Assembly (NCBI RefSeq): GCF_002310835.1
Contig: NZ_CP011041.1
Location: 2,850,001 to 2,882,000, forward strand
Reading direction: 5' to 3'
Source: Pseudoalteromonas tetraodonis
GTDB lineage: Bacteria; Pseudomonadota; Gammaproteobacteria; Enterobacterales; Alteromonadaceae
Length of the DNA stretch: 32,000 nucleotides
In this document: piece by piece, positions 6,205-27,604 of the stretch
How positions within the stretch are numbered: the first letter of the stretch is position 1
How the letters are laid out: each line of letters starts with the position of its first letter
Program-made: the position numbers and the translations under genes
The notes under the pieces: model-generated
Told to the model about the DNA's origin: nothing
Databases searched by the model: none
What the model saw: the letters and a program-made list of their open reading frames with translations, nothing else

Positions 6205-6225
6205 GTTGTTAGCTTAAGCTGTTAA

Positions 6226-8744: not shown

Positions 8745-8918
8745 TGCCGTTAAATTAAGTTAGTCAAAATAACTAAAAAGTGGCTTTTTAATTTTATTTC
8801 TTAAAAAAGCCACTAACTCAAAAATCACTTTAAAAATAAGCAATTGATTTTTAAGGACTAAAAAACTGGCCTAGTCTTTGCTCTAAAGTCTGTAATTAAT
8901 CATCTAGGATAATAAAAA

Positions 8919-9299: not shown

Positions 9300-9312
9300 G
9301 TAACTACAGCAT

Positions 9313-10212
9313 TTATTGGGCGCTAATTTGATTGCGCCCTAACTTTTTCGCATTATACAAACCGGAATCAGCTTCTTCTAACAATGCTTTTTCAGTGTAA
9401 GCTTGGCTACTCTCACTAGAAGCAATACCGATGCTAATGGTGACGTGTGTAGCGTTTAAAGACGCATTATGTTCAATATTCAAATCATTAACGGCGTTAC
9501 GTAACTTGTTGGCAAAAGCGATTGCACCTTGCTGATTGGTTTCTGGTAATACGGCCACAAATTCTTCACCGCCGTAACGCGCAACAAAATCACTGCCACG
9601 CTCACATTGCGCGGCTAACGTTTTTGCCACTGTTTTTAAACATTCGTCTCCAGCTCGGTGGCCATAGCAGTCGTTATAACGTTTAAAATGATCAATATCT
9701 ATGAGTAAAACGCACAAAGGAGAGTAGTTACGCTTACTTCTACGCCACTCTCTTTCTAAGTTCTCATCTAAATAACGTCTATTGGGTATTTCTGTTAAGC
9801 CATCAATAGAGGCAAGCATTTCTAGCAAATCATTTTTTTGCTTAATTAATAACTGGTTCCGCACTCTAACTTTCACAATAGCGGCACTAAATGGCTTACC
9901 AATATAATCCATTGCGCCGAGCTCTAGCCCCTTTGCCTCATCTTCATGACGGTTGTTTGCAGAGATAAAAATAATAGGAATAGCCTGACTTATACTGTTC
10001 TCTTTTAGCTGTACGAGTACTTCATAACCATTCATACCAGGCATCATGATATCTAAAATGATTAAGTCTACTTGTGTGTGTTTAACAAACGCCAGCGCGT
10101 CTTCGCCGCTTGTCACTAAGTAAACATCATGCTCATCGCTTAAGGTTTTTTCTAAAATGATTCGGTTAAGCGCATCGTCATCTACAATTAATATTTTTGC
10201 TTTATTTATCAT
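9313..10212 (-). CDS. Response regulator receiver + GGDEF diguanylate cyclase (PleD/WspR-like)
   Basis: Receiver with acceptor context LIILDIMMPGMNGYE. Active-site RYGGEEFV. The start overlaps the kinase stop by 11 nt. Confidence 0.85.
   Translation of the reverse strand: MINKAKILIVDDDALNRIILEKTLSDEHDVYLVTSGEDALAFVKHTQVDLIILDIMMPGMNGYEVLVQLKENSISQAIPIIFISANNRHEDEAKGLELGAMDYIGKPFSAAIVKVRVRNQLLIKQKNDLLEMLASIDGLTEIPNRRYLDENLEREWRRSKRNYSPLCVLLIDIDHFKRYNDCYGHRAGDECLKTVAKTLAAQCERGSDFVARYGGEEFVAVLPETNQQGAIAFANKLRNAVNDLNIEHNASLNATHVTISIGIASSESSQAYTEKALLEEADSGLYNAKKLGRNQISAQ
9318..9348 (+). terminator. Putative terminator of the lipoprotein gene, embedded in the 3' end of the convergent GGDEF gene
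   Basis: Stem gggcgc (9318-9323) / gcgccc (9334-9339) with a 10-nt loop, followed by taaCTTTTT (T-run 9344-9348). Confidence 0.45.
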
Positions 10213-13200
10213 TGCTTACATCTAAAATTTTTATATAAATATGAACTTGTTTTAACTGTATTATCAGCTCTTTAATTGCAGCATTGGCGCTCTTGTCGCC
10301 CACTTTTAATAATTGCTCAGTATGTTGAGCACATAATAATAATCGGTTAAACCCTAAGTTTCCTGCTATCCCTTTTAGACTATGCACTAAGCGTACCATT
10401 TCAATAGTAGGTATGTCTTTTTGAAGATCAGCTGAATATGACTCACTTAACACCGCTAACTTAGTAAGCATGCTTTGCAATAGCTTCTCATCATCATTGA
10501 ACTGTGTCAAAGCGAAGGTTTTATCAAAAAAGCAAGGCTTAGATATGCCTAAATCAGCTATCGATGCAAATAAAATAGGCGCAACCACAGGCTTAGTTAA
10601 ATGTTTATTCATACCACTATTCAATGAACGTGCAATGTCGGCAGGCTCACAATGTGCAGTTAATGCAAAAATAGGCAATTGCTGGGCGTCAAACTGTTGG
10701 CGTATTATTTGGGTTGCTTGATAGCCATCAATACTCGGCATTTGAATATCCATTAAAACTAAATCGGGGCGCAATATATTCACCCATTCAACCCCCTGTT
10801 TAGCATCACTAGCAGTCACAACATTCACTTCGGCTTTACACAATATACTGCTAATAATGTCGAGATTGAGCGGGTTATCATCTATGGCTAATACTAAGGT
10901 TCCCGCTATTTCTTCTTGTGGTTTATCCGCTTTATATTGAGTTACTTTCTTTAACTTTTCAGGGGTTAAACTAAGTAACCGCTGCGCCAATGCACTGCGC
11001 GGTAAATACTGGCTAATAAAAGAGTCATTTATTGAAAGCTGATTCGGTTGCGAGTGCTCTATAACGATGAGTGAAGTAGTACGAGTGTGTAATACTGCTT
11101 TTATTGCTGAGGTGAGAAAGGCAGGTACGTCATCAGCATCGATTATAATGCTATGCGCTTGTTGCAAACAATCTGGATCAGTTACGACTATTTCAAGAGC
11201 TTGATTATTGAAAAAAGGATGCGCGGTAATAACCTGATTAAGCAACTGACTCTTCGCGCTGGTGATCAGTAATAGTCTATCTGTAAAGCTTGCTGATTTC
11301 TCGGTATCTGTCGCTAAATCAAGCGTGAAGTAAAAATGACAGCCATGGCCTTTATCACTACTGAGTGCAATTTCACCTCCCATTAATGCCACACTATGCT
11401 TTACAATTGCCAGCCCTAAGCCAACCCCTTGATGCAAGCGAGTAGATGATTCATCACCTTGCGTGAAGGCATCAAATAAACGGCGTTGATCCGCTTGAGC
11501 AATCCCCACTCCCGTATCAATAACCTGAAAACAAATACGCTGCTCTATATGGCTCTGACTCGGCTGTAATGTCATTTTTAATGTCACACTGCCTTTATTG
11601 GTAAACTTAACGGCATTGGTAAGTAAGTTACCTAATACTTGTTGCAAACGAATTGTATCACCGACTAAAAATGGAGAAATTTGCGAGTCTATGTCGATTT
11701 TTAGCTGTATCTGTTTTGCTTGGCATAAAGGTAAAATTAAACTTTCGCAGGTATCAATCAAATCAACTAAGCACAATGGCGCTAATTGCAGCGTTGCTTC
11801 TTTACTTTCAACACGGGCAAAATCAAGCATACTATTTAGCATCTGCAACAAATTATTGGCCGCATATTTTGCTTGGCTAGTTTGTTGAATTTGCCGCTGT
11901 GTTAACCCGTGCTCTGCGAGCATATCCAATAATCCCAACACGGCATTGAGGGGGGTGCGTATTTCGTGGCTTAAATTAGCAATAAAACGGCTTTTAGCTA
12001 ACGTGGCACGCTCTGCATCATCTTTGGCTTTGGTAAGTTCTGTAACATCTTGAATATGAATAACATAATAAAGCGGCTGACTATTTTCATTCCAAATTAA
12101 CGACATACTCAACTGTAACCAGGCATTTAATTGGGTATGAGCCAAGGTTAAGTGAAACACCCTTTTCTTATTATTTAATAATTGCTGTAGTAATGCTTCA
12201 AGCTCCTGCCATTGCGTATTATTAAAAAGCGCATAAAAAGGGGTATCGGTTAATTTATCATGCTTGGAAAATAATTTTCGTGCGGCTTTGTTTATCTGTA
12301 AAATAGCGTACTCAAGCGAGAGTAAAAACACCCCATTTGCGGCAAATTCAATTGCGCTTCTAAATATAGATTCAGACTCTTTTAATGCATACAAAGTATG
12401 TTGTTGTTCTGTAATATCACGACCAACCCCCATAGTTCCTAATAAGTGTTGCTGTTCATTGTAAAAGGGAGCAATGGTTAACTGATAAGTTCGCTCAGCA
12501 ACATCTATGCGCTGCTGAATTTGCATTCTATGCTGTAATACTTGATATTCCAGCAAACTAATTTGTTCATACTCGTTACTTATGTTGTGTATTTGCTGCC
12601 CAAGAAGTTCACCTTGAGTTTTTCCAATAAACAACTCAAACGCTTTATTACAGCCTAAAAAAATGCCTTCTGTATTTTTAAAATAAATAAAATCAGGCAC
12701 GCTATTAAGTACTGTGTTTAATAACGCTAAATGACGCTCTTTTGCTTGGTCGCTATGTTTTAGCTTTTGCGATTGTTGCCGTACTTGATCATCTAACTTT
12801 TGATTAGCATTTTGCAAAGAAATAACTAAATGCTCATTTTTCGCAAAAATAGCTTTTACCCGAGCAAACCAAGGTTGCCAGTTTAACGGTATTTGGTAAT
12901 TTAAATACCCGCTATTGTCATCGTTATGATGCTCTAAATAACGCATCAACTCGGTCATAGGTTTGATAAATATACGTTTGCTTAACCAAAAAAAGATGTA
13001 AAACATCAAACATAAAAATAAGGCTAACGAAATAAACTCTATCAATACTTCATACACAATACCGCTTGAGAGAGTGTGCTTGTCAGCAAGAAACGCCAGA
13101 TGAATAGGGTTCTTTTTTGAAGGCTGAATTAAAAATAATGAGTCTGCTCGCGCATTACTCTTTTGTGAGGGGCTATTAATATTAGGCCAATAGGTCGATA

Positions 13201-13972
13201 ACTTTATGGCTTGATTAATTGGCTGCTGTGAACTGGCAATAATTTCATTCTCTTGGTTGATAAAAACATACTCGCCTTGCTTTGAGGTTATTTTTTTCAA
13301 CCAACTAGAGATAGCCTGTAAGTCATATATTAAAACAATATAATCTGAGGAGTTAAGCTCTCGCTGTCGGCCAACTGCAAAATATGCGTTATTGTCTACT
13401 TTAATAACGGCACTTGAAGTGAGTTTGTTCGCTGAAGGTAAGGGTTTAAAGTCGCCATTAAGTACCTGCGTTAAAATATAACTTTGTGTATTGTTACGCC
13501 GAGCTAAATAAGCAAAGCCGCGCTCATCAACATAGGCTACAGAATGCAGCGACGAAAGCAGCGCTAAAGCGGTATTGAAAGACGGTGCCAGCGACATGAC
13601 TTTTTGCCAGCGTGATAATGCCTGTTCGGAATAGCTGAATTGGCCTTTTCCTACTATTTCGCCATTAAAATGTGCTATCTGGCTATAATAATAATGCTCG
13701 TATTGATTAATGTTTTTTGTGAAGGCATGATTCGCTGGTTGTGGGGCGTGTTTGTCATACATAATAAACATCGCATTAAGTAAATCGTCGATGGCTTGCA
13801 TATCATGGTCAAGCTGCGCCGATAACGCACTAAAATCGGTGGTCTTTTTTGTTATTGCACGGTCCATTTTTATATCATAAAAATGCAAACACAAAAAAGA
13901 GGCCACCAATAAAGGGATTGCTAACGCCACAAAAACAGAGCGATGATAATGTTTTAGCGGTAAAAAATTCAA
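10202..13972 (-). CDS. Hybrid sensor histidine kinase (periplasmic sensor, PAS x2, HisKA, HATPase, receiver(s), HPt)
   Basis: H-box LSHEIRTPLNAVLG. N-box NLLTNAVKFT. G-boxes DTGVGI and GVGLGLAIV. Receiver LVLMDIQMPSIDGY. HPt VHSLKGIAGNLGF. Two TM segments flank a ~280-aa N-terminal sensor region. Confidence 0.85.
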   Translation of the reverse strand: MNFLPLKHYHRSVFVALAIPLLVASFLCLHFYDIKMDRAITKKTTDFSALSAQLDHDMQAIDDLLNAMFIMYDKHAPQPANHAFTKNINQYEHYYYSQIAHFNGEIVGKGQFSYSEQALSRWQKVMSLAPSFNTALALLSSLHSVAYVDERGFAYLARRNNTQSYILTQVLNGDFKPLPSANKLTSSAVIKVDNNAYFAVGRQRELNSSDYIVLIYDLQAISSWLKKITSKQGEYVFINQENEIIASSQQPINQAIKLSTYWPNINSPSQKSNARADSLFLIQPSKKNPIHLAFLADKHTLSSGIVYEVLIEFISLALFLCLMFYIFFWLSKRIFIKPMTELMRYLEHHNDDNSGYLNYQIPLNWQPWFARVKAIFAKNEHLVISLQNANQKLDDQVRQQSQKLKHSDQAKERHLALLNTVLNSVPDFIYFKNTEGIFLGCNKAFELFIGKTQGELLGQQIHNISNEYEQISLLEYQVLQHRMQIQQRIDVAERTYQLTIAPFYNEQQHLLGTMGVGRDITEQQHTLYALKESESIFRSAIEFAANGVFLLSLEYAILQINKAARKLFSKHDKLTDTPFYALFNNTQWQELEALLQQLLNNKKRVFHLTLAHTQLNAWLQLSMSLIWNENSQPLYYVIHIQDVTELTKAKDDAERATLAKSRFIANLSHEIRTPLNAVLGLLDMLAEHGLTQRQIQQTSQAKYAANNLLQMLNSMLDFARVESKEATLQLAPLCLVDLIDTCESLILPLCQAKQIQLKIDIDSQISPFLVGDTIRLQQVLGNLLTNAVKFTNKGSVTLKMTLQPSQSHIEQRICFQVIDTGVGIAQADQRRLFDAFTQGDESSTRLHQGVGLGLAIVKHSVALMGGEIALSSDKGHGCHFYFTLDLATDTEKSASFTDRLLLITSAKSQLLNQVITAHPFFNNQALEIVVTDPDCLQQAHSIIIDADDVPAFLTSAIKAVLHTRTTSLIVIEHSQPNQLSINDSFISQYLPRSALAQRLLSLTPEKLKKVTQYKADKPQEEIAGTLVLAIDDNPLNLDIISSILCKAEVNVVTASDAKQGVEWVNILRPDLVLMDIQMPSIDGYQATQIIRQQFDAQQLPIFALTAHCEPADIARSLNSGMNKHLTKPVVAPILFASIADLGISKPCFFDKTFALTQFNDDEKLLQSMLTKLAVLSESYSADLQKDIPTIEMVRLVHSLKGIAGNLGFNRLLLCAQHTEQLLKVGDKSANAAIKELIIQLKQVHIYIKILDVSNDK

Positions 13973-14038
13973 CGACCTACCTAATTATTAGCTCAAAAAT
14001 CAAACTGTAGACTATAGAGCCAAGATGTTAAGCGCAAG

Positions 14039-14305
14039 TTATAAATTTTCCTCGGCGAACGAAGCCAGTCGACTACGTACTACCCCATTAAGATTTACGG
14101 TAGCACCACCTTCAAAGTGCTTAAACCGCTCTACAATATAGGTAAGCCCCGAAGTAACCGCCGTTAAATAATTACTGTCTATTTGTGCCAAATTCCCAGT
14201 ACAAATTAGTTTTGTTCCTTCTCCGCAGCGGGTAATAATGGTTTTTAGCTGAGAAGCTGTTAAGTTTTGGCTTTCATCTAAAATCACCCCCGAATTGATA
14301 TAATA
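14039..14305 (-). pseudogene. 3' fragment of a phoH-like (PhoH/PhoH2-type) ATPase gene, truncated by island insertion
   Basis: The translation (V)ILDESQNLTASQLKTIITRCGEGTKLICTGNLAQIDSNYL...SGLTYIVERF...RSRLASFAEENL is the Walker-B-to-C-terminus part of PhoH-like ATPases. There is no Walker A. The in-frame extension stops at TAG/TGA at 14306-14311, and unrelated AT-rich DNA follows. Confidence 0.75.
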
Positions 14306-14325
14306 CTATCATACCCTCAATAAAC

Positions 14326-14354
14326 TTGAACAAAAAAGTTTTTACACACATACT
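14326..14354 (+). promoter_or_regulatory. Candidate sigma70 promoter of the recombinase operon
   Basis: TTGAAC (14326-14331), a 17-nt spacer, then CATACT (14349-14354). RBS AAGGTG precedes ATG 14382. A TGaTATAAT extended -10 also sits at 14296-14304, right at the junction. Confidence 0.35.
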
Positions 14355-14381
14355 CTAGCTAAGAATCAAAGGTGAACGAAA

Positions 14382-15872
14382 ATGATACTTCGAAATACAA
14401 CAAAAACTAAAATAATTAAAACATCAGTCAACTTTGGAAAAGGAATGTCTTTTCACCTCGATAAATCAGGGCAACCTATTAAGACTGAAAAAGGCATCAG
14501 AACTCACTCATATAGGCACGATAAAATAGAACCTAATTTTCCAGTGCTATATCACCCGACTCGCTTCACCGAATGCCAAGAAATGAACTTATTTTTAATG
14601 CACCGCTTTGAAGGTCATTTCAGTCTCAAAAAGAATCAAATAGACAATGAGGCTTTTAGTGACGCTTATCATGCCAGCCAACCGGGAAAGCCATTAGATG
14701 TTAAGTCTGTTCGCAGTATAGCTAAGCACTTAAAAGCTTTCTTAGATTGGTTGGATAAAGATGATGCATCCTATTTTGAAGTAATAGCTGCACCACTTTC
14801 AAAACAATCTGTAGATGATGATATTTCTAGGTTACCTGTGTGGAGATATCACAAACATTTATGTGAAAGAGTCGAAACCAAAGATAAGTCTAAACGCATA
14901 AGCTTTAACAGCGCTCAAGAACGAATTAGAGCTGTTAAAGCATTCTATATATGGAGCCATAAGCGCGGAGCTATAGATAGCCTCCCCTTCTCACTTGAAT
15001 ACAAACAGGTACGTATTAAATCGAAAGCTAAATCAGGTGTCAGTTCGTTGTTTCAATTACCTACCAGCAACAATCGTTCTGGGGGCTTATGGAAATGGGT
15101 CAGTAATTTGAGCATTCCAAATACATTGAAACAAAAAGAAGACTCACCAGACAAAGGTCTACAACCATATTCTCCAAAAGAACTTAAACAGTTACTGGAG
15201 ACGAATACAGCTCAAAAAGAGACTTATAAACTTTATTTGCAGTGTGCCTTGTTAGGTGGACTTCGATCTTTTGAAATTTCGGCCATCGACCAGAAAGACC
15301 TCTTTAACCCTGATGAAAAAGAAAACGAGAAACGTATTCCAAAATTGAACATTGTACGAAAAGGACATAAGCCAGTGAGATTAACAATAGCGCGAGTTCT
15401 AATGAAGCTTTTGTACAATCACACTTTGACAATTCAAAATATGAAGCGACGTACCAAACATGAGACTAATCATGGTATGGACAATAGCGAACATCCGCTT
15501 CCTTTGTTTATGAATAGTTCAGGATCGCGGATAAGCGAAGATACACCGGGGAATACTATTTCCATAGTTAGAAAAGAACAAAGGAAGCAGGGATTAGAAA
15601 TACTATTACGCACATTCCATGACTTACGCGCTACCTTTGCTACTTATGTCGCTAAATACCTAATTGACAAAGGTGAATCAGAAAGTTCCATCCGACAAAC
15701 ACTAATGACTTTGATGAGTCACGAAAGCTTTAAAACAACCAAACGTTACATCGACTTTGCCAAAAGTGTATCAGTGGATGCATACGGAGCGATGTCAGAG
15801 TGGGTAAAAGATATCTACGGTGATGTTAACGAATTGCTTATGCGTGAGGCTGAAGATGCTACAGCAAGTTAA
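14382..15872 (+). CDS. Tyrosine recombinase 1 of trio (GinA/TnpA-like)
   Basis: Box I LGGLRSFEI, beta-hairpin K (VRKGHKPVRL), HDLRATFATYV (H-x-x-R), LMSHESFKTTKRYIDF (H...Y). Confidence 0.8.
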   Translation: MILRNTTKTKIIKTSVNFGKGMSFHLDKSGQPIKTEKGIRTHSYRHDKIEPNFPVLYHPTRFTECQEMNLFLMHRFEGHFSLKKNQIDNEAFSDAYHASQPGKPLDVKSVRSIAKHLKAFLDWLDKDDASYFEVIAAPLSKQSVDDDISRLPVWRYHKHLCERVETKDKSKRISFNSAQERIRAVKAFYIWSHKRGAIDSLPFSLEYKQVRIKSKAKSGVSSLFQLPTSNNRSGGLWKWVSNLSIPNTLKQKEDSPDKGLQPYSPKELKQLLETNTAQKETYKLYLQCALLGGLRSFEISAIDQKDLFNPDEKENEKRIPKLNIVRKGHKPVRLTIARVLMKLLYNHTLTIQNMKRRTKHETNHGMDNSEHPLPLFMNSSGSRISEDTPGNTISIVRKEQRKQGLEILLRTFHDLRATFATYVAKYLIDKGESESSIRQTLMTLMSHESFKTTKRYIDFAKSVSVDAYGAMSEWVKDIYGDVNELLMREAEDATAS

Positions 15873-18627
15873 AACGCGGAAGTCCAATCGTATTCCTGCT
15901 AGATTTAAACCTCATTCAATTGTTCTAGCCGAACAGTTAGACGTTTTATTTAACAGGGCATATGACAAAGAAAGCAATATTAGCACAGGTGACGACACTG
16001 CTATTTCAATGAGTCGCTTGCGGAATGCTTGTGTCAGTTTACAGCACATTCTTCCTCTAGCCCTTAATAAGGTTAGTGCAGATACTGCGACATCAATTCA
16101 AACTTCGGGATTAAATGCTCTATCAGACTTTGAAATTTGGCAAGAACTGGAATACTTTTGCATTAATGAAATAAATGATGTCAAGCTACCTAGTTATGCT
16201 ACTCGTATAGAAGAAGCTTTAGAAAACATAGCTAAGTTTCATTTTTATGATAACGCTATCAACGCTCCTTTTAGGCTAGTAAATGGGGCTACTTCAATCG
16301 ACATAACTAAATTATTCGAACTTGAATTCCATCAAGTAAAAGAGACTCGTAAATTACTAAAAAAATATCTGGACTATCTCGTCCTTCCAGAATTAAGCCT
16401 CAAAGATTCTTCTATTAGAGACAACATCCTCAAAACTGCGACTGCTATTATAAATATTTGTCTACATGATACTTTTAAGAATACTGAACGCGTCAAACTG
16501 CCATTATTGGCAACATTAAAGGATAGGGAATTCGTTTCATCATTTATATGCAATCACAACTTCCGTACTTTTTTAAAATTTATACTACCCGATGTGTGGG
16601 GTAAAGCTAGAGTCAATCAATTTAAAACTGAAGCCGAAGTGATAGGGTATGCACAAAGCATATCATCCAAATTTGGCAATGAAGTTGATGCTTTTTTGAA
16701 AAATCAGATAGCAAGCGCTTCGGAAGCTAATACAACAAGAGTTAGATCCTCAACTTTATCATTTCCAAGGTGGTTGAATAGTGCTGGTAGCGTAGCATCA
16801 CCAATAATTAAGCTGCTTAGTGAGCGTGGAATTCAAGGGTTTGCAGAAAATGGCCTTCAGGGATTTAAATACCTTTATAAGCATTACCAAGAAGAAACTC
16901 AAAATAACCAGCAGTTTTTACTGCTACTAAACGCTGCATTGGACCTTTACCACTTTGTTACGGGTGAAAAAATCGCAAAGGAAAGTTTATTACCCTACTC
17001 ATTGGGCTATTACCTTAAAGAAAGTGACACTACCGAATGGCAGAAGCATGAGTGGGTATATGACAATGCCTATAAATTTTATCAAAACCTAGTCGAATAC
17101 CATAAAGTTTTTACAAAGCGAATTGATGGCGAGAGCATAGGCATCGTCACTCTCAAAGGTTACATAGGTAGTATGGCTAGAGCATTGAAAGAAAATGCAT
17201 CATCATTAACAGATGAACAAATGAAGCTTATTGCCAATCATGGGGTTCATGCTTTTGTTGAAAATAACTGTGAGATACTAAAGGCTATAAGAGAGGCAAT
17301 TCAACTAAAATCAAAACAAGGCGATTTGTCGGTTTTTGTTGGTAATCAATATCAGAGCGCTATCGACAAATTACTATCGTTTTATGGTCTAGATACTATT
17401 AAAAGCTTTCCGGTCAACACCGAATTAACTGCACAACATCAAGAGCAACTCTCTCAGAATCAAGATAAGCTCTACTCATATAGAGAAGTAGTAGAATTAG
17501 CATATTACATAGAAAAAGGGCTTTCTGAGACCTTACTCACAATTAAAGACAAAGTTACACTTTATGCAGCAAAAGTCATATTGAAAACTGGTTGGAATTC
17601 AACTCCTACGCTAGAGCTTGATACTGACGACTTATTTTTCTTTAACACGCCATTACATTCAAGTAAAACTCCTGCTCTTCGTTTATTTAAACGCCGAGCT
17701 AATTATCAAACACAATGGCATAAATTTGAAATTAAAGCCGAAGATCTAGAAAAAGAAGGCGTCTTATACGGCGACGTTGTCGAACCAGTAATATTTGATA
17801 TTAAGGCTGCGACTAAACTTACGTCTATTTACCGCCCTTCTATTGAGAACCTATCAAAAAGAATTTTTGTTTTTCCCAAAGTAAATAGTATTGGAGAAGT
17901 AAAGATTCAATTATTAACAGCATCACGTTTCAAGACCACTATAGATAGGATATTGACTGAGCTTGGGTGTGATATCGTATTTAATTCGCAAAAGATCAGA
18001 AAATCAGGGCTTAACTACATTTACCGAAAAGTTGCCAAAGAATTTAAGTGGTATCAAAAAGCTGGCAAGCACTCTTATGAAACGTTCTTGCGTCATTATT
18101 TAATGCAAGATAACAAAGATGTTGCAATGACAATCAACAGAGCGACAAAAACAATGGCAGACTATTTTGTTCGCGATGTTACCGACAAAGTAATCATTTT
18201 GCAGACTCCACCAGAAGACGGTAAAAAAGTCCCGAATGGCACATGCATTAACTCAAAAGATAAATCCGCAGTAGTGGCATTCGAATCACAAAACAGGAAA
18301 TTATTAGACCAGCGAGATACAAACGAGCATGCATGTGCCGACTTTAACGCATGCTTGTGGTGTCCGTTCTATCGCTGTGTTGCTGACGCATTGCATGTTT
18401 GGAAACTTTTGTCATACCGGGATTTTGTTGTTGCTGATATGGAAAACTCAGCCGCAACATTTGACTCTATAACAGAGCAACTGGAAAACATAGAGCAGTT
18501 GAAAAATAGGGTTAACGAAATATTAGCTGATATTGCCAAGCTTAATGCTCAAGCTGTGACTGATGGAAAAGAACTATTGAGAACAGAGGGTATTCATCCT
18601 CATTGGAAAAACACAGGTTTGCTATGA
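15856..18627 (+). CDS. Tyrosine-recombinase-like protein 2 of trio (GinB/TnpB-like), very large with a divergent active site
   Basis: The C-terminal third has a recombinase-like layout: KTGWNSTPTLEL (box I position), LRLFKRRANYQ, KIRKSGLNYIYR, GKHSYETFLRHYL. A Cys cluster HACADFNACLWCPFYRC follows. I prefer ATG 15856 (RBS GAGG 6 nt upstream, overlapping the gene 1 stop) over the track GTG 15820. Confidence 0.65.
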   Translation: MLQQVKTRKSNRIPARFKPHSIVLAEQLDVLFNRAYDKESNISTGDDTAISMSRLRNACVSLQHILPLALNKVSADTATSIQTSGLNALSDFEIWQELEYFCINEINDVKLPSYATRIEEALENIAKFHFYDNAINAPFRLVNGATSIDITKLFELEFHQVKETRKLLKKYLDYLVLPELSLKDSSIRDNILKTATAIINICLHDTFKNTERVKLPLLATLKDREFVSSFICNHNFRTFLKFILPDVWGKARVNQFKTEAEVIGYAQSISSKFGNEVDAFLKNQIASASEANTTRVRSSTLSFPRWLNSAGSVASPIIKLLSERGIQGFAENGLQGFKYLYKHYQEETQNNQQFLLLLNAALDLYHFVTGEKIAKESLLPYSLGYYLKESDTTEWQKHEWVYDNAYKFYQNLVEYHKVFTKRIDGESIGIVTLKGYIGSMARALKENASSLTDEQMKLIANHGVHAFVENNCEILKAIREAIQLKSKQGDLSVFVGNQYQSAIDKLLSFYGLDTIKSFPVNTELTAQHQEQLSQNQDKLYSYREVVELAYYIEKGLSETLLTIKDKVTLYAAKVILKTGWNSTPTLELDTDDLFFFNTPLHSSKTPALRLFKRRANYQTQWHKFEIKAEDLEKEGVLYGDVVEPVIFDIKAATKLTSIYRPSIENLSKRIFVFPKVNSIGEVKIQLLTASRFKTTIDRILTELGCDIVFNSQKIRKSGLNYIYRKVAKEFKWYQKAGKHSYETFLRHYLMQDNKDVAMTINRATKTMADYFVRDVTDKVIILQTPPEDGKKVPNGTCINSKDKSAVVAFESQNRKLLDQRDTNEHACADFNACLWCPFYRCVADALHVWKLLSYRDFVVADMENSAATFDSITEQLENIEQLKNRVNEILADIAKLNAQAVTDGKELLRTEGIHPHWKNTGLL

Positions 18628-20708
18628 CCAAAGAGATAACTAAAACAAAACTACTTGATATCGCTGTTGTAAAAACACATACAGGTCAAATCACTATAAA
18701 ACCTTTGGTTCAGGTGTTAGAAGATTTTAAAGTTGATGATACTAGCGCTTTTAATTCGATTGCTTTGTGGGAAAACAGAGCATTGAATATTGCTAAACAT
18801 GGCACTATTCACTTTGGCGATGACACTTGGATAAGCTATGAAGAAACGCAAAGAAATGTGAATTTTAAAGGTGTTGATGAATTAGCATATCAAATTCGAA
18901 TTTATTCACTAATTAAACTCACACATGGTGATGTTGTAGGCGGTAAACCTCTAAAAATCTCTACACTTCAAAATGATGTAACGTATCTAAATTTATTTGC
19001 AGCCTTCTTAAGACAAAGAGGTTATCACTCATTTCATGAGTTGGAGTTCAAATCTGACTTAGTTATTAGGAATCTCATAAAAGACTATTTATATGAAGTC
19101 AGGAAAATAGCTATTTACAGACAATCACACTCATTTACTAAACTATTTGACGTGCAGCGCAGCTTTCGTCTTTTTGGCCCTAAGGTGTGTAGTGTTTTTA
19201 TTGATGTACTTAACCAACTAAACGAGTTACACCATCCGAGACCAGTCACTTATTCGCACCCTGTCATTCCTACTAAAGTAATGAAAAAAATTCTGAAGTT
19301 TGCAGAAAAAATAGTTGAAAACTCTAAGGATAAGATAGAACGATGGCTAGAATTAAATGCACGCTTAATAGATAGTTTAAATGAAGGCTCCGTTGAACCA
19401 CCGCCCAAAATTAGTACAGGTGAGCTAATAGCAAAACATGTAAGAAACTTACCCGATGAAGTGGAATTCATTCAATTATCCGAAGAATTAGAAGATTTAA
19501 AATTAGCCACATACATTAATATCTTGGCCTATACAGGCATGAGATATAACGAAGTACTTACATGCAAGGTTGGCTGTGCCAATTACAAAGATGATATTTA
19601 TTACATTACGGCAATCATGACCAAAACCGACAACAGTAAGGTTGAGATGGAATGGTTTTCAAACGCTGAAGTACATGAGTGTGTTGGTATTTACGAAAAA
19701 TATGTGTTCGGTATGCAAGAAAGGGCAAAAGCTGTACTTTCTTCATGCAGAGCCAATATAACAAGTAGTCAAGCACACAACTTGAAAGAAGGGTTAGAAA
19801 GAAACCGTCTTTTCGGGGTTTCACATAGTAGCTGTAGTGTTAGTTTTAGCGATGCTGGGCGATTCACAAAATTTGAGGTTAAAAACAGTGAAAACATTGA
19901 GCTTTTTGACTTAACTCTAGACGATGATGATATAGCAGAGCTTGAACGCCTTGAATCTAACTACAAAGAAGTTAGAGGAGAGAATAGAGGTGTCCCATAC
20001 GAAGAAGGCGATACGTTTAGATTAACCGCTCACATGTTTCGACATACGTTGGCCTACTTTGTCATTGCCAATAAATTAGGTGAGCTTGATGATATTAGAT
20101 ATCAATTTAAACATTTAACCAGCCTAATGACGTTTGTTTATACTCGAAGAGCATTTTTGGCCTCAACAACTTTAATTAAAACTACTGAAGAGTTTAATGA
20201 GATTTTAATTGACCGTGTTGCAGAAGAGTTAATAGATGAAGCCGAGTCACAATCACTTAAAGGTGGTGCTGGTGAGCAAATTAATAAAACATCTAAAGAT
20301 CTGATAATAGGTATTACTGATAGTCAAAGTAAAGATTCGACTGTGATTAAGCAGATCCATTTCAGTTCAATTGAAGAACTGAAAAAATTTCTCGTCAAAA
20401 ATATTAAAAACATACGTGGCTTGCCTACGGGGTACTGCACTGCGGGAGAAGCTTGCAAGATAAAAGGAGCAGGAATCCCTAGTGGCTGTGTGTATTGTGG
20501 TAGTAAAATCATTACCAAACGCCACAAGGTCAATTGGCAAGTGATAAAAAAAGATGCGACCCAGAAACTAGAGGCATATGCAGCATCAACCACAGAAGAG
20601 CAAGAAGATTACGAGCTATTTGCTATTCACTGGAAAAATAATATAGCAGCAGCTGACTATGTATTAGATGAAGGCAAAGCGCATACAAACCAAGGAGAAC
20701 AAGCATGA
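18624..20708 (+). CDS. Tyrosine recombinase 3 of trio (GinC-like)
   Basis: Box I AYTGMRYNEVL, LTAHMFRHTLAYFV (H-x-x-R-H), FKHLTSLMTFVYT (H...Y). C-terminal Cys motif GYCTAGEACKIKGAGIPSGCVYCG. ATG 18624 forms an ATGA overlap with the gene 2 stop. Confidence 0.75.
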   Translation: MTKEITKTKLLDIAVVKTHTGQITIKPLVQVLEDFKVDDTSAFNSIALWENRALNIAKHGTIHFGDDTWISYEETQRNVNFKGVDELAYQIRIYSLIKLTHGDVVGGKPLKISTLQNDVTYLNLFAAFLRQRGYHSFHELEFKSDLVIRNLIKDYLYEVRKIAIYRQSHSFTKLFDVQRSFRLFGPKVCSVFIDVLNQLNELHHPRPVTYSHPVIPTKVMKKILKFAEKIVENSKDKIERWLELNARLIDSLNEGSVEPPPKISTGELIAKHVRNLPDEVEFIQLSEELEDLKLATYINILAYTGMRYNEVLTCKVGCANYKDDIYYITAIMTKTDNSKVEMEWFSNAEVHECVGIYEKYVFGMQERAKAVLSSCRANITSSQAHNLKEGLERNRLFGVSHSSCSVSFSDAGRFTKFEVKNSENIELFDLTLDDDDIAELERLESNYKEVRGENRGVPYEEGDTFRLTAHMFRHTLAYFVIANKLGELDDIRYQFKHLTSLMTFVYTRRAFLASTTLIKTTEEFNEILIDRVAEELIDEAESQSLKGGAGEQINKTSKDLIIGITDSQSKDSTVIKQIHFSSIEELKKFLVKNIKNIRGLPTGYCTAGEACKIKGAGIPSGCVYCGSKIITKRHKVNWQVIKKDATQKLEAYAASTTEEQEDYELFAIHWKNNIAAADYVLDEGKAHTNQGEQA

Positions 20709-21169
20709 GTAGCGCATATGATGATATAAAACGTGCTTTTGAAGAGATGAAATCTGATGGCAGCAAGATAACCAAAAATGCAGTAGCAACGAGAGCTAAA
20801 AGAAATATTGCGAATCTATCTAAAGAAGAAGAAAAATGGGTAAAGTTACGAGAAAGTATTGAAAAAGCTCAATTAACTTGGGAAGAAAAAAATAAAGATA
20901 ATTTAATAAAACAACTCAGAACAAAGGTAGCCGAACTAAAAAGCAAGCTTGCTAAAGAAAAGCAAAAAAATAATATCGGCACTAAGGAAATCGATAATAA
21001 AGATACAAAGTTATTAGTGTTGTTGAGTGAAATGTACGCAGAAATAGATAAGCTCAAACTGATTAATGCCGATTTACAAAATCAACTTCAGCATTCAGGG
21101 CAACATACAGAAATAAGAGTGGATACGTCTACTGGTGAAATTATTGAATTAGTTTCAACGAAACAATAG
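20705..21169 (+). CDS. Small recombination accessory protein (GinD / Tn554 TnpC-like): N-terminal HTH-like segment + coiled coil
   Basis: 154 aa. ATGA overlap with recombinase 3 and RBS AAGGAG. The N-terminus ...GSKITKNAVATRAKRNIANLSK resembles the short HTH of TnpC-like proteins. The rest is a K/E-rich heptad-like coiled coil. Confidence 0.55.
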   Translation: MSSAYDDIKRAFEEMKSDGSKITKNAVATRAKRNIANLSKEEEKWVKLRESIEKAQLTWEEKNKDNLIKQLRTKVAELKSKLAKEKQKNNIGTKEIDNKDTKLLVLLSEMYAEIDKLKLINADLQNQLQHSGQHTEIRVDTSTGEIIELVSTKQ

Positions 21170-21391
21170 ATTAGATGTAGTAGCTCATATCTCAACTTAC
21201 AGTTTTGTTGATTAGGCTTAGACTTCACCTGACAGGCAGCAAGAGCGAACAAGAGACGGTCAGAGTGATCTGGATATGTGAACTTAATTCTACAAAGAGG
21301 ACGCTTAGCGACCCCGTTCATGCAATAAAATTGAGTTTAGGCAATCCGCATTAATTGTATAATGATATTTCTGCTTCTAAAGAGTATGTTT

Positions 21392-21769
21392 ATGAGAACC
21401 ATTGGAAAACTGGCAAAAGATTTAGATATCAATGTTGAAACAATCCGTTTCTATGAGCGCCAAGGTCTGATAGAGCAACCTTTAAAACCAGAGTCTGGTT
21501 ACAGAATGTATGGCGATGCCCTTACCAGTCAACTCAAATTTATTCTGAAAGCTAAAGCATTAGGGTTTACGCTGAAAGAAATTGAATCGCTTATGTCACT
21601 AAGTGACAGTTGCGCTGATATTGAGTCGATGGGGTTGCAAAAACTTAATCTCATTCGTAATAAAATTGCTGATTTACAGCGATTAGAGAAAGTAATTCAA
21701 GATATGACAGATTCTTGCAAGGCCAATCAAGACCCTCAATCCTGCCCGGTAATAAATTCACTTAAATAG
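21392..21769 (+). CDS. merR: MerR-family Hg(II)-type metalloregulator
   Basis: MRTIGKLAKDLDINVETIRFYERQGLIEQP is a MerR HTH. Three Cys sit at the positions of MerR Cys82/117/126 (SDSCAD, DSCKAN, QSCPVINSL). ATG 21392 has AAGAG 7 nt upstream, so I prefer it to track start 21362. Confidence 0.8.
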   Translation: MRTIGKLAKDLDINVETIRFYERQGLIEQPLKPESGYRMYGDALTSQLKFILKAKALGFTLKEIESLMSLSDSCADIESMGLQKLNLIRNKIADLQRLEKVIQDMTDSCKANQDPQSCPVINSLK

Positions 21770-21829: not shown

Positions 21830-22219
21830 ATGATCAATAAAATTCTAGATAAAGTAGGTTCTGGTGGCGTTTGGCTAGCCGCCCTTAGCTGCACAGCATG
21901 TTTTCCTGCACTCGGCTCATTGGCATCTGCTCTTGGGTTAGGTTTTCTTTCACATTTTGAAGGGATAGCGGTGAACACCTTATTGCCATTATTTGCTTCA
22001 CTAGCGTTGTTAGTTAATTTCTATAATTGGTATCAACATCGAGATTCATTGAGAGGCGTTTTAAGTGTCATTGGCCCAATTGCAGTATTGCTGACCCTTT
22101 ATCCTTTATGGCAATACGACTGGAGCACTTACTTATTTTACTTTGGGATCATTTGGATGGTCGTAATGTCTATTTTAGATATTGTTAAGCCCATTAAGGA
22201 ACCAGTATGCAAGGTATAG
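21830..22219 (+). CDS. merC: Mercury transporter MerC
   Basis: 129 aa and four hydrophobic helices. LSCTACFPALGSLASALGLGFLSHFEG...LLPLFASLALLVN closely parallels MerC (CAACFPALASFGAAIGLGFLSQYEG...LLPLFAALAFLAN). Confidence 0.8.
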   Translation: MINKILDKVGSGGVWLAALSCTACFPALGSLASALGLGFLSHFEGIAVNTLLPLFASLALLVNFYNWYQHRDSLRGVLSVIGPIAVLLTLYPLWQYDWSTYLFYFGIIWMVVMSILDIVKPIKEPVCKV

Positions 22220-22447: not shown

Positions 22448-22987
22448 TCAACCAAGTAATATCTTAAATGCGATTGCGATTAACACTAAACCACCAAATA
22501 GTTCAGCTTTAGATTCCAGCCATACGCCACTTCTTTCGCCGATATTCACACCAATCCAGCTAAAGGCAAACGTCGTGACGCCTATTATCAAGCAAGCTAC
22601 GGCTATATCTACCTCAAGCAATGTGATTGCATAACCTGCCGCCATTGCATCAATACTGGTGGCAATAGCAAGAACAAATAGCACACGATGAGTAACATTA
22701 GCAATATCTTCTTCAATTCCTTCAGATTGGGACTCATAAATCATTTTGCCACCGATAAATACTAGCAAAATAAAAGCTATCCAAGGTGCATAATCTTCAA
22801 TCCAAGATGATAAACCTTTACCGCTGTAATAGCCTAAAAGAGGCATAAAGCCTTGGAAAAAACCAAAATAAGCAGCGGCTTTAATAAAGAGCTTTTCAGC
22901 ATTTACTACTTTTTTAGAACCTAAGCCTATGGATACTGCAAACGCGTCCATACTGAGTGCTATAGCTAATACAAATACTTCAAACAA
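22448..22987 (-). CDS. mntP: Manganese efflux pump MntP
   Basis: 179 aa and six TM segments. The duplicated DUF204 signature is present: [13 protein letters not shown] and [10 protein letters not shown]. Confidence 0.8.
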
Positions 22988-23038: not shown

Positions 23039-23770
23039 TTACTTGACTGATGTTAAACACCTAAGATTTACTGACAATTTTTCTATTATCAAAGCCTTAT
23101 TTTTACACCAAATTTCAGCCAGATATTCAGTAACAGTGCCAACACTTGAAGGAAACAGAATATTCCCCGCCACTTTGGCGAAAGGTCCATCAGTTTCGAG
23201 TAGAACTCTATCTTGAGGTATCCACGATATTACTTTTTTAGCTCTGGCTGAAGTTAGCATGGCTGGCCCAATAGAGAAGAAACAGCCTAGCTCGACGGCT
23301 TCTAGAACTTGCTTCTTAGTACCTAAAAACCAATGAAGAATAGAAGTACCAGCATTGGGATGTAACTTAAGTTGTTCAAGAACTTCACCAGTCGCGTTAA
23401 GACTATGGATAGTTAGTATTTTGTCATCAAAGCCTTCACATTTTTTTAGAATATGCGTGAAAACCTCTAATTGATCATCAAAGTAATCAGCGTAACCTTT
23501 TGAGCCATCCAGTCCAATTTCTCCAATATATCTAGTTCTATCAACTAGCTTATCGAATAGTGCTAATTCATTTTTTCTTAGATGAGCAAGTTGAGGGTGA
23601 AGCCCCAAGGCCGTCTTACAGTGTTTTATGCCACTTGTTAACTGGACAGTACCTTCAAAAGCTGAAGGCACCGTAGTTACTGATAGCACGTAATAATTAC
23701 TGCTTTTTATGTCGTTCAATACCTCTTGATGATCTGGATATAAATCAACGTGGCAATGAAGATCCATCAT
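23039..23770 (-). CDS. qatD: QatD, TatD-family metal-dependent hydrolase/nuclease of the Qat anti-phage system
   Basis: N-terminal DLHCHVD (HxH) and C-terminal LETDGPF. ATGA overlap with the qatC stop. It is the fourth gene in a KAP-ATPase / QatB / QueC-like / TatD order. Confidence 0.75.
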   Translation of the reverse strand: MMDLHCHVDLYPDHQEVLNDIKSSNYYVLSVTTVPSAFEGTVQLTSGIKHCKTALGLHPQLAHLRKNELALFDKLVDRTRYIGEIGLDGSKGYADYFDDQLEVFTHILKKCEGFDDKILTIHSLNATGEVLEQLKLHPNAGTSILHWFLGTKKQVLEAVELGCFFSIGPAMLTSARAKKVISWIPQDRVLLETDGPFAKVAGNILFPSSVGTVTEYLAEIWCKNKALIIEKLSVNLRCLTSVK

Positions 23771-25101
23771 GACGATTTATCCGCTTGGAGAAATAATTCA
23801 ACCTCTGCCAATCCTCGCTTAATAGTTGATTCTAATTTTTCTCGTATATCTTTTTCTTGTGGTATTGGCCCTGAACTTCGAAGCCAAGAACGATAGTTAT
23901 CGGATTGTTTCAATCTAATAATGGCAGTTTGAACCGCTTGGAGATCATCGCGAGTATCTTTTTCTTTGATAAGATCTCTCAACCGCTTTGTCTTGTATGG
24001 CGCATCTTGTGTAAAACCAGCATGAAAAACTGACGCTCTTCGAATAAGGCAAGGTACACAATGCCCACACTGTTTATGTTCTCTGTGCCAATGACTGCAT
24101 GAAACACTTAGGGGAACTGCTTTTCTAATTGCGTCTTGATCAACACATTCCGCTAACATTTCACCTTTAGTTTTGAATTGATAGGGGTTTACAAATTTGA
24201 CATGAAACCCAGTGTCTCTAAGCAAAGATTCAAGCCTGCTTAGAAAATTAGGATGAGTAGTTCTAGTGCTATGGCTACCAATCCGTCTTCTGGTAAGCGG
24301 CGGATTTATAGAAATATAGCCATTCTCTGGGACGACAATAGTTTCAATACTGCTATCGCAATTAGCATTTCTTAAGGCTGATATACCAAGTACCGCCATA
24401 GCTAGGAAGTTAAAGCTTCTTCCCCTCATACTAATGTCAGTTTTACCTTCTAAGTGCTTAATAATATGGGGAGACATTGAATAGGACAATTCGCCGAATG
24501 GCGGGGATAATAATTGCTTAATGTCTTCTTGCTTAGCGCCATCACCACGATAAGCGTGACTAACCAAGAGAGGCTTTAAATCTGATTCTCCGTTCAAAAT
24601 ATCAATTGCACCAACTGCGCTATCAAGACCACCAGAAAAAAGGCAAACAGAGTTGAGTCCAATTAATGATTTTGCTTTTGCTTTCGCTTGCTCACTTGTT
24701 TTAGGAGTCGGCATCGGCATAGTTGTTTTTTCAAAAGTAAACAGCCATTGATCGCCTGTAAGAAAGTTGAGCAAAGAACTCAGTTCAGGTTCTACAAAAT
24801 TCCACATATCCTCATCAGTTACAGGAACATGCAAATGCATTTTTCTAGCCCATGCATTTTCTGCATTATCCCTTAATTCAAATGTATCAGCAGCGGTAAC
24901 GGCGGTAGCAATTGTTATCAGATCTATTGAATCAGCATCTACATTCAATCCTAAATCACGAACTGTTTGTAGTAGTTGTTTTGACACCAAGCTGTGCTTA
25001 GTGATGTCATTTTGATGCGTATGAAACATTTGGACAGGATGACAATCATCAGAAAAGTCAGGCAAGTTAGCAGGGTCATGGTTAAAGTAAAAATTAGTCA
25101 T
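23767..25101 (-). CDS. qatC: QatC, QueC-like PP-loop protein of the Qat system
   Basis: PP-loop LFSGGLDSAVGA. Zn-type Cys cluster CSHWHREHKQCGHCVPCLIRR. ATG 25101 has GGAG 7 nt upstream. The track alternative TTG 25122 / ATG 25119 has a weaker RBS. Confidence 0.75.
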   Translation of the reverse strand: MTNFYFNHDPANLPDFSDDCHPVQMFHTHQNDITKHSLVSKQLLQTVRDLGLNVDADSIDLITIATAVTAADTFELRDNAENAWARKMHLHVPVTDEDMWNFVEPELSSLLNFLTGDQWLFTFEKTTMPMPTPKTSEQAKAKAKSLIGLNSVCLFSGGLDSAVGAIDILNGESDLKPLLVSHAYRGDGAKQEDIKQLLSPPFGELSYSMSPHIIKHLEGKTDISMRGRSFNFLAMAVLGISALRNANCDSSIETIVVPENGYISINPPLTRRRIGSHSTRTTHPNFLSRLESLLRDTGFHVKFVNPYQFKTKGEMLAECVDQDAIRKAVPLSVSCSHWHREHKQCGHCVPCLIRRASVFHAGFTQDAPYKTKRLRDLIKEKDTRDDLQAVQTAIIRLKQSDNYRSWLRSSGPIPQEKDIREKLESTIKRGLAEVELFLQADKSS

Positions 25102-25981
25102 TAAAGCTCTCCCATTCATCAACCGTCATAGCAATAGCATCGGCTTGAATTTTAGTAATATTTTCTTTGCTAATAGTACTGGGGTTGCCATTAGTTACTT
25201 TGTCTAACTGCTCTTGTGTAATCACTTTTATTAGTTCCCTTAATTCAACTTCCATTTGATGATGCTTGCTTGCTGGCTCAACATGAAACCAAGCTCTGCC
25301 CATGCCTTCAACCACATCCTGAAAAATAAGGTCTGTTAAATAACAGCCTATGGCTTCTTGGATAACTTCGTCAGTAAAACTGTTTGGGTCAAATTCTTCT
25401 GTATCGGGGAGTGCTTCTTCTAGTGCGTAATCCAACGCAACTCTTACAGCATCCGAATCGGCATTATCAGGCGCTAAATGGCTAGCAATTTTGTCGATTG
25501 CTTGATCAGTCGATAGCCCAGTTAGATCACCTAATGATAAGCTTTGATTATTAACCGTTACGGTGTCGCCACGCATGACACCAAGCAATCCAGAACCAGC
25601 AGTTATGCCGCTTGATAGTCTCCTGCTTGTGCTTTTACCTCCGCCAGAGCCTTTTCTAGAGTAACTTTTTAATGAACGCCTTAGATCTGAGGTTGAGCCA
25701 CCTGTTTGCGCATATTTACCAAATGCTCTTCTGGCACTGGCAAACCTATTTGGAGGCGGTGTTGCTGTAGGTGAACCACCGATTTCTTGTTGAACCTTGT
25801 CATTGTCAATATCATTGCTATTGTCATTCTGATCATCAGCTTGATTATTATCAGAGCCAGCTTGCTCATCCCCATCAGTACCTGATGCAGGTTCTATTGT
25901 GACAGGATCTCCTTGCTCTGCCCAAGATGGAATAAGTGGACTCTTATTATTTGGTCCTGTTGACGATGCGGACGTACCCAT
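25094..25981 (-). CDS. qatB: QatB (Qat system protein of unknown function)
   Basis: N-terminus MGTSASSTGPNNKSPLIPSWA, then an acidic low-complexity tract. It lies between the KAP ATPase and the QueC-like gene. RBS GAGGGA. Confidence 0.65.
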   Translation of the reverse strand: MGTSASSTGPNNKSPLIPSWAEQGDPVTIEPASGTDGDEQAGSDNNQADDQNDNSNDIDNDKVQQEIGGSPTATPPPNRFASARRAFGKYAQTGGSTSDLRRSLKSYSRKGSGGGKSTSRRLSSGITAGSGLLGVMRGDTVTVNNQSLSLGDLTGLSTDQAIDKIASHLAPDNADSDAVRVALDYALEEALPDTEEFDPNSFTDEVIQEAIGCYLTDLIFQDVVEGMGRAWFHVEPASKHHQMEVELRELIKVITQEQLDKVTNGNPSTISKENITKIQADAIAMTVDEWESFND

Positions 25982-25982
25982 A

Positions 25983-26364: not shown

Positions 26365-27553
<1,189 letters not shown>

Positions 27554-27604
27554 TTTTTCACCCAAATTTGTATGCTTATTAGCATAACATTTCTTTCTTA
27601 ATGG

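Follow-up and report, generated by a model that had tools for sequence, protein, structure and literature searches.

Integrative elements of the strand-biased circularizing type (SEs), known from the work of Nonaka, Yano and Idola, are characterized by a recombination module of four genes, intA-tfp-intB-srap, as found in SE-6283 and SE-6945 of Vibrio alfacsensis. Published SEs range in size from 6.4 to 58.5 kb and occur in hosts including Alteromonadales (Idola et al. 2023, PMC10214605; this survey is cited here and below from a portion of its text). According to the same source, the 6 bp beside the terminal arm C stem from the target, and the 6 bp beside arm C′ represent a footprint of the donor site. 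For an SE to be counted in the survey, a PSI-BLAST match to both Tfp and Srap was required, and SEs and GInts formed separate protein clusters (Idola et al. 2023, PMC10214605). In GInts, the catalytic ginA and ginB are followed by the degenerate ginC and by ginD (PMC5385486; Idola et al. 2023, PMC10214605), and flanking imperfect direct repeats of 10–11 nt have been reported for these elements (PMC5385486). Here, we compare with these systems a genomic island of Pseudoalteromonas tetraodonis, the left part of which lies in a stretch of 32,000 nucleotides (contig NZ_CP011041.1, positions 2,850,001 to 2,882,000; this whole stretch is hereafter called the window). The block at window positions 14288–21169 quite probably represents the left-end recombination module (intA-tfp-intB-srap) of an SE-class integrative element, since its gene order and the collinear homology of its proteins match those of SE modules. 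With this, the family assignment moves from the GInt/Tn554-like module of the initial annotation to the SE type, and the island is classed as a previously uncounted SE clade. In a literature search, no prior description of this Pseudoalteromonas island was found.

The four-gene module and its homologs

The module starts 95 bp from a cut host phoH2 gene and comprises four co-directional open reading frames (ORFs) on the plus strand, namely ORF1 (intA, 496 aa, 14382–15872), ORF2 (tfp, 923 aa from its ATG or 935 aa from an upstream GTG, 15856–18627), ORF3 (intB, 694 aa, 18624–20708) and ORF4 (srap-like, 154 aa, 20705–21169). As read from the sequence, ORF1 and ORF2 overlap by 17 nt (ORF2 ATG at 15856, ORF1 stop at 15870–15872), and the two following junctions are ATGA overlaps at 18624–18627 and 20705–20708. 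Shine-Dalgarno-like purine runs are located upstream of ORF1, ORF2 and ORF4, and no plus-strand terminator-like site was seen within the four-gene block. Since the same four genes recur with equal lengths on many independent contigs, the ORF pattern is not due to chance. The tight packing of four co-directional genes directly at a disrupted host gene, as already noted in the initial annotation, is thus borne out. Its remark that the proteins are unusually long is not, because their sizes are normal for SEs (467/773/731/165 aa in SE-6283 and 460/863/677/128 aa in the block of Vibrio cholerae plasmid pW7G); in the SE blocks listed by Idola et al. (2023, PMC10214605), Tfp measures 550–897 aa.

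Both ORF1 and ORF3 pass the Pfam Phage_integrase (PF00589) threshold (1.7e-8 and 2e-7, respectively) and display a full catalytic set in alignments of their homologs, GLRSFE ... HDLR ... H ... Y in case of ORF1 and TGMRYNE ... HMFRHT ... KH ... Y in case of ORF3. In BLASTP comparisons, ORF1 is 31% identical to IntA of pW7G over its full length (E 7.5e-67) and ORF3 is 31% identical to pW7G IntB (E 1.6e-96). IntA and IntB of SE-6283 (pSEA1) are matched with E-values of 5.6e-12 and 3e-11, and matches of ORF3 also include the plasmids pAQU1 and pSEA1. PDB sequence searches with ORF1 and ORF3 yielded nothing usable. Of the three tyrosine-recombinase signatures initially proposed, these two therefore stand, while the third, assigned to ORF2, falls away: this protein has no Pfam or NCBIfam match and no recognisable RHRY tetrad, carrying TGWN where integrases have TGxR, a correspondence by motif analogy only. 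At this Arg-I position, the closest SE Tfps display TGWN (pW7G, Azonexus), TCWN (V. penaeicida) or TGIN (P. agarivorans plasmid). ORF2 aligns with pW7G Tfp over its C-terminal half (29% identity, E 6e-66, BLASTP) and further matches the Tfps of the P. agarivorans plasmid (E 7.7e-14) and of SE-6283 (E 1.6e-4). Motifs in common with SE Tfps are TGWN, KIRK, KHS...HY, the cysteine cluster CADFxxCxWC, which reads CADFNACLWCPFYRC at the C-terminus of ORF2, and a terminal HPxW. A tblastn search with ORF2 led to modules of four genes on plasmids of Vibrio, Pseudoalteromonas and Shewanella, and those of V. cholerae pW7G, a V. casei plasmid and the P. agarivorans Hao 2018 plasmid are contained in Additional file 3 of Idola et al. 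(2023, PMC10214605). The N-terminal 370 aa of ORF2 gave a confident, all-helical AlphaFold model for which no structural match was obtained.

The small protein of 154 aa had been described as helix-turn-helix (HTH) plus coiled coil, and ORF4 indeed contains an N-terminal TetR-like HTH motif, KITKNAVATRAKRNIANLSK, and a central coiled coil, in addition to conserved Y..D and TGEI motifs. Its family is tiny, with 16 cluster representatives in 1.84 billion proteins. Nevertheless, the family profile aligns nearly end to end with Srap of pW7G and of V. penaeicida (hhalign probabilities of 97.5–97.7%, E about 1e-12), and this alignment takes in the TetR-like HTH (KIN..VA..AGV...LY) as well as the C-terminal Y..D motif.

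Compared with SE-6283 and SE-6945, and most closely with the pW7G block, the module hence has four genes in the same order and of comparable sizes, with one-to-one homology for IntA, Tfp and IntB and homology at the profile level for Srap. Further likenesses are imperfect terminal inverted repeats of 13 bp with a 6-bp spacer (SE range 13–19 bp), the cysteine clusters of Tfp and IntB, site-specific insertion, a marine gammaproteobacterial host, the lack of conjugation genes in the examined parts (some 27 kb of the left end and some 10 kb of the right end, to which all statements on examined parts refer) and an element GC content slightly below that of the local host flank (0.381 versus 0.389 within the window). 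Size of the island, sub-host GC and host taxon fit what has been published for SEs. It differs from them in that identity to any listed SE is 23–31%, Srap lies beyond BLAST reach and a size of about 52 kb belongs to the upper end of what is known for SEs. Moreover, the target consists of the phoH2 Walker-B codons, a phoH2 paralog is coupled to the truncated host gene, and copy-out is attributed to this island by analogy.

Two further observations concern Tfp and IntB. The Tfp cysteine cluster C..C(A/N)DF..C.WC (window 18244–18390, ORF2 residues 797–845) is found in all SE Tfps aligned. A C-terminal cluster of IntB, GYC..G..CK...P..C..C (about 20460–20540), is common to three of the four SE IntBs aligned; the V. 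penaeicida IntB sequence stops before it. Both clusters may be zinc-binding modules, and neither is mentioned in the portion of the SE paper cited here (PMC10214605). In addition, Tfp homologs with 28–33% identity (E 1e-59 to 1e-78) occur outside Gammaproteobacteria. Those of Betaproteobacteria are located on an Azonexus plasmid (NZ_CP151407.1, L003) and in Azospira (NZ_AP021845.1), Caballeronia (NZ_CP084276.1) and Noviherbaspirillum (L127), and one of Alphaproteobacteria stems from a Dongia metagenome-assembled genome (L129). IntB homologs are likewise present on the Azonexus and Azospira plasmids, with the Azonexus intB homolog located about 10 kb from intA-tfp. In the portion of Idola et al. 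(2023, PMC10214605) cited here, SEs are reported as not detected in either of these two classes.

Insertion site, ends and proposed reaction

On the host side of attL, an 82-aa ORF (14039–14287, minus strand) covers just positions 124–198 of the 205 positions of Pfam PhoH and is hence a 3′ fragment of the host phoH2 gene (PIN+PhoH), comprising the Walker-B DESQ and onward. At the cognate place, the metagenomic contig L012, which is otherwise 99.5% identical, carries an intact gene for a 463-aa PIN+PhoH protein (PhoH2) and thus provides the empty site. As the identity between L012 and the window ends exactly at 14287/14288, both the disruption of the host gene and the discrete nature of the insertion are confirmed. 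Insertion took place within the Walker-B codons of chromosomal phoH2 (VVIL|DESQ). The other half of the gene was absent from a six-frame translation of 29–32 kb, and the element runs off the window. A metagenome scan with the PhoH N-terminus gave attR of a related strain and a second insertion type, with no contig in common with the element of the window. The window is 99.6–99.7% identical to chromosome I of Pseudoalteromonas sp. SM9913 and related contigs, and the right junction was found in SM9913 itself (L112) via truncated PhoH N-terminal proteins. In the coordinates of the SM9913 record, the element measures about 52.4 kb, its end lying about 35 kb beyond the window. Almost all of the best-scoring homologs of the host PhoH2 N-terminus (97–100% identity) are truncated fusion forms of 450–453 aa, not the intact 463-aa protein. 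Hence, an occupied phoH2 is the common state in the P. issachenkonii/P. tetraodonis/SM9913 group.

A comparison with an empty site had been suggested for defining the ends; attL and attR were recovered in addition to the empty site. In window orientation, attB reads ...GGCTTTCATC TAAAAT CACCACCGCATTTTG..., attL reads ...GGCTTTCATC TAAAAT CACCCCCGAATTGATATAAT... and attR reads ...TTTCCAATTCGGGGTTG TAAAAT CACCACCGCATTTTG.... The spacer or crossover region TAAAAT is thus located at 14278–14283 (plus strand) in attL and is repeated beside the right end. It is followed by the left terminal arm C, the motif C-like sequence CACCCCCGAATTG at 14284–14296 (plus strand), and the right arm C′, outside the window, is CAATTCGGGGTTG (SM9913, L112). 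Both arms form inverted repeats with 12 of 13 positions matching, or 15 of 20 if extended, and the right half of attB is itself arm-like (10 of 13). In a circular joint, the arms would face each other across the 6-bp spacer. The 6-mer at attL varies with the host species (TAAAAT, CAGGAT, TAATAT, CAAAAT), and in Aliiglaciecola sp. LCG003 the flanking repeat comprises these 6 bp and no more. The flanking 6-mers of P. rubra S1946 differ from each other (CAGGAT at attL versus TAGAAT at attR, with the attB sequence CAGAAT known from the type strain only); hence, they are not a simple target duplication. This mismatch would fit the spacer carry-over (‘fingerprint/footprint’) of SEs and Tn554.

By homology to SE-6283 and SE-6945, IntA and IntB would be the catalytic recombinases of the island, and Tfp, lacking the RHRY tetrad, together with the HTH/coiled-coil protein Srap would act as obligatory non-catalytic partners. 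The complex would synapse attL and attR and exchange one strand preferentially, giving a circular copy with the joint attS (C′-6 bp-C) and leaving no empty site behind (copy-out). This circle would then integrate into attB in such a way that the 6 bp of the target end up beside C and the donor-borne 6 bp beside C′. To move from cell to cell, the element would have to be carried by a conjugative plasmid or some other vehicle, as no transfer genes are present in the examined parts. After destruction of the host copy, PhoH2 function would be maintained by the coupled paralog, with expression driven by the host promoter. The attS joint pattern was not found in viral contigs, where its absence is uninformative.

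Distribution and competing explanations

A scan of species-representative genomes revealed the element in at least five other Pseudoalteromonas species, each time at the same phoH2 position. Carriers are P. rubra S1946, P. lipolytica CGMCC 1.8499, P. haloplanktis ATCC 14393, P. shioyasakiensis JCM 18891 and P. gelatinilytica NH153. Their Tfp sequences are 98% identical and the DNA of these copies shows about 97% identity along more than 10 kb, whereas the phoH2 flanks are host-specific and clearly diverged (10 differences in 46 nt for P. rubra) and the 6-mer beside arm C differs by host. Nearly identical copies between host-specific flanks at the same site indicate that the island has spread horizontally between Pseudoalteromonas species in recent times and with strict site specificity. 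A relative of about 19 kb, with a Tfp of 78% identity, resides in the same gene and at the same codon in Aliiglaciecola sp. LCG003, where an IS21 element is located inside intB. In the assembly collection, 270 indexed blocks contain the CDF protein of the cargo. Moreover, in contigs L015 (4036–5301) and L018, which otherwise match window positions 1–14911 and 27783–31817, an IS3 element replaces the region from inside intA to inside qatA. This IS3-associated deletion removes tfp, intB, srap, mer, mntP and qatDCB and should immobilise the island.

Several points weigh against an SE. Strand bias, circularisation and the absence of an empty site after recombination are not readable from sequence. 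SM9913 chromosome I (NC_014803.1, 3,332,787 bp) was scored with 0 SEs and is absent from the tfp/srap table (Additional file 3) of the survey; the very divergent ORF4 is likely the reason for this score, which would then reflect the screen rather than the biology. At the BLAST level, ORF4 resembles no Srap, a tblastn search of plasmids with it gave no match, and its relation to SE-6283 Srap is weak (hhalign probability 15%, only the HTH being aligned). For ORF2, a tyrosine-recombinase fold received no significant Foldseek, PDB or hhalign match. Its C-terminal half models poorly in AlphaFold (pLDDT about 50, first with full ORF2 and then with the C-terminal 394 aa), and its top Foldseek matches, the integrases 3nkh and 2a3v, are non-significant (E >1). 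Likewise, a profile of the Tfp C-terminus gave nothing usable in a PDB sequence search and no detectable relation to the IntA catalytic profile in hhalign; for Tfp of SEs, a tyrosine-recombinase-like fold was obtained by Phyre2 (PMC10214605). Furthermore, the flanking direct repeat in SM9913-type hosts measures 10 bp on both sides (TAAAATCACC), as reported for GInts; this apparent length arises because host and arm share CACC. Finally, a natural empty site exists in L012, yet such a site is expected for genomes that were never occupied and is silent on excision.

Among the alternatives to an active SE-type island, the one surviving best is that of an SE-derived island which has become fixed in this lineage and lost its activity, with the four genes as a relic and the cargo inherited vertically. 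Decayed copies are consistent with it, namely the deletion of L015/L018, the IS21 insertion in Aliiglaciecola intB and an IS3 insertion in qatA of the window, and most close relatives of the host carry a disrupted phoH2. We nevertheless regard it as unlikely, since the four ORFs are full-length in the window and in most contigs, both terminal arms are intact, copies of about 97% identity occupy the cognate site between host-specific flanks even in the distant species P. rubra and P. lipolytica, and the element is missing from a genome with 99.5% identity elsewhere.

Considerably less probable is a GInt, i.e., a ginABCD operon with three integrases and GinD, excising and integrating as described by Bardaji et al. 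(2017). Features common to the island and GInts are an operon of four genes at the 5′ end, a large cargo, insertion at a specific site, short imperfect direct repeats (10 bp in this host), a small helper protein and a degenerate recombinase-like member, ORF2 here and GinC there (PMC5385486). In this island, however, the degenerate protein is encoded second, whereas it is third in GInts behind the catalytic ginA and ginB. Against the GInt module of Escherichia coli O157 Sakai (ECs_3512-3509), the best BLASTP match reached an E-value of 4.7e-4 and was out of register, ORF3 matching GinC. ORF2 had no match below E 1.9, and ORF4 compared with GinD gave E 3.7 in BLASTP and a probability of 0.4% in hhalign. 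With SE modules, these proteins give E-values of 1e-66 to 1e-96. This comparison refers to a single reference module, from which a distant GInt subgroup could differ. The initial annotation had also expected an AT-rich far end as in GInts, but no AT-rich non-coding 3′ end is present. The phoH2 paralog lies 206 bp from the terminus, these last 206 bp have 36% GC compared with 38–39% for the element, and a drop to 32% is confined to the final 100 bp. What remains of that first interpretation is a discrete, site-specific, non-conjugative island opened by a recombinase operon in phoH, with its empty site and its two ends located; gene order and similarity at motif level at best (to the one GInt module compared) disagree with the family it had named.

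A recombinase-in-trio (RIT) element or a Tn554-family transposon can practically be dismissed: RIT elements share several tandem, overlapping tyrosine recombinase genes but have three catalytic recombinases of 315–410 aa, 34-bp terminal repeats and no fourth gene, compared with a middle protein without catalytic motif, sizes of 496–923 aa and 13-bp arms here, and Tn554 (tnpA, tnpB, tnpC) is a much smaller element known from Firmicutes that lacks a Tfp counterpart. Tn554 of staphylococci does combine an ordinary and a large recombinase with a small helper and a 6-bp junction sequence from the donor site (PMC10214605, in the portion cited), and it shows strong target specificity inside a gene. 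Hence, the relation to Tn554 suggested at first holds as a mechanistic analogy (6-bp spacer, small TnpC-like helper) and not as one of gene content. No detectable similarity was found either, and Staphylococcus is absent among the 10 of 18 genera named, and among the 40 of 56 plasmid records listed, for the matches of ORF3. A tRNA-targeting integrase island was rejected for lack of a tRNA, and an integrative and conjugative element or a prophage for lack of transfer and phage genes in the examined parts.

Cargo, proposed replacement of phoH2 and implications

Downstream of the recombination module of the SE-type island, the cargo was expected to combine metal resistance with phage defence, and this is what was found. 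A merR-like regulator (21362–21769, plus strand) and merC (21830–22219, plus strand) are followed by mntP (22448–22987, minus strand), all three identified by Pfam, and by a QatDCBA anti-phage system on the minus strand (23039–29012; PADLOC QatA-D, E 1e-181 to 1e-22). Herein, qatA is split into 25983–26363 and 27615–29012 (minus strand) by an IS3-family insertion at 26365–27630 (minus strand; Pfam rve/HTH_Tnp_1, orfA at 27242–27565 and orfB at 26373–27203) with a 3-bp target duplication. This IS3 copy is specific to the window, being absent from L004–L009, where the flanks overlap by 3 bp, and an intact QatA of 586 aa is encoded in other copies of the island. As IS3 splits qatA, the Qat defence system is probably inactive in the window copy. 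Between qatA and the CDF gene, a resolvase remnant of 81 aa (29031–29276, minus strand; HTH_7 end of a serine recombinase) hints at a cargo assembled from transposon-borne pieces. A CDF transporter (29777–30685), a small ORF (30694–31065) and the start of czcC (about 31138, running off the window) complete the part of the cargo in the window, all three on the plus strand. On contigs with the same CDF protein, the order is MerR, MerC, MntP, QatDCBA, resolvase remnant, CDF transporter and czcCBA, followed by a second CDF transporter, a transglutaminase-core protein, MerR, a DUF305 protein and a MauE-like protein. In agreement with the initial annotation, no conjugation or phage genes were found in the examined parts and no tRNA in the parts seen.

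At its right end, the island carries a complete PIN+PhoH paralog of 460 aa, 39% identical to the host protein. The truncated host ORF runs about 70 codons into the element, and its stop overlaps the ATG of the paralog (ATGA or one base). Paralog and overlap are kept in every right end examined, i.e., in SM9913 and relatives, L019, P. rubra and Aliiglaciecola. At the equivalent Walker-B place, the paralog DNA has neither the arm-like GGTGGTG nor the spacer, and judging from this it would not itself be a target. The paralog may be driven by the host promoter and stand in for the destroyed gene, as a substitute that the element brings along. Phages inserting in icd or tRNA genes duplicate the 3′ end of their target. 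Likewise, insertion into a coding gene is here compensated by element-borne sequence, which, however, consists of a complete, 39%-identical paralog downstream of a truncated ORF instead of a restored 3′ end. The term ‘phoH’ occurs in none of the supplementary files of Idola et al., and the paralog is not mentioned in the portion of the SE paper cited here (PMC10214605). This coupled, putative phoH2 replacement is a notable accessory feature of the SE-type island. That it is integral to the strategy of the element, host PhoH2 being replaced by the element's own version, is a tentative proposal that we consider somewhat doubtful.

Further insertions were observed in the same gene. A second type of element lies at the Walker-A codons of phoH2 (GCGK|T, residue 286), with its left end on L010 (1–5680) and its right end on L028, L057, L064, L073, L075 and L078. 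It has 8-bp inverted ends, AGGTATTA and TAATACCT, and a 6-bp flanking repeat, TAAAAC. The genes close to its ends code for proteins of 1085 aa and of 760 aa or more (785 aa as called, with the reading frame continuing beyond the locus), for which neither a Pfam match nor similarity to SE or GInt proteins was found. The right 9.65 kb of this element, including the phoH2 paralog, are 97.6% identical to the right part of the island, and only the last 300–350 bp or so differ; this second element may be the more novel object. One phoH2 paralog cluster led to a different module rather than to the right end of the island. A third module was found in Pseudoalteromonas sp. 10-33 (LOFI01000024.1; L099, L100) at 1615–11383, between a truncated phoH2 of 347 aa and an element-type paralog; it encodes proteins of 777 and 760 aa (no Pfam match), a protein of 183 aa and a tyrosine recombinase of 478 aa. 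Nested or tandem insertions seem to be frequent in phoH2, which has the look of a hotspot.

The literature on SEs consists of a handful of papers, and the known host range rests on a single survey. This survey misses whole clades, as a complete genome covered by it carries an apparently intact SE-type island of 52 kb. Moreover, homologs of Tfp and IntB occur on betaproteobacterial plasmids, and one of Tfp in an alphaproteobacterial metagenome-assembled genome, i.e., in classes reported to be free of SEs. The island explains how many marine Pseudoalteromonas species come to share one set of resistance genes (copper, zinc, cadmium, mercury-type, manganese) together with Qat. With an empty site, both junctions, culturable hosts and a complete phoH2 paralog in place of the broken gene, it offers a tractable natural system for studying copy-out and the roles of Tfp and Srap. 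If the replacement of host PhoH2 were indeed part of the element's strategy, phoH2 would be a contested locus with at least three insertion types, bearing different recombination modules and using three insertion codons (in Walker A, in Walker B and around residue 347), and SE-type modules would be exchangeable ‘engines’ for one cargo island. PhoH2, a PIN-domain RNA helicase/RNase, may then matter to conflicts with mobile elements or phages.

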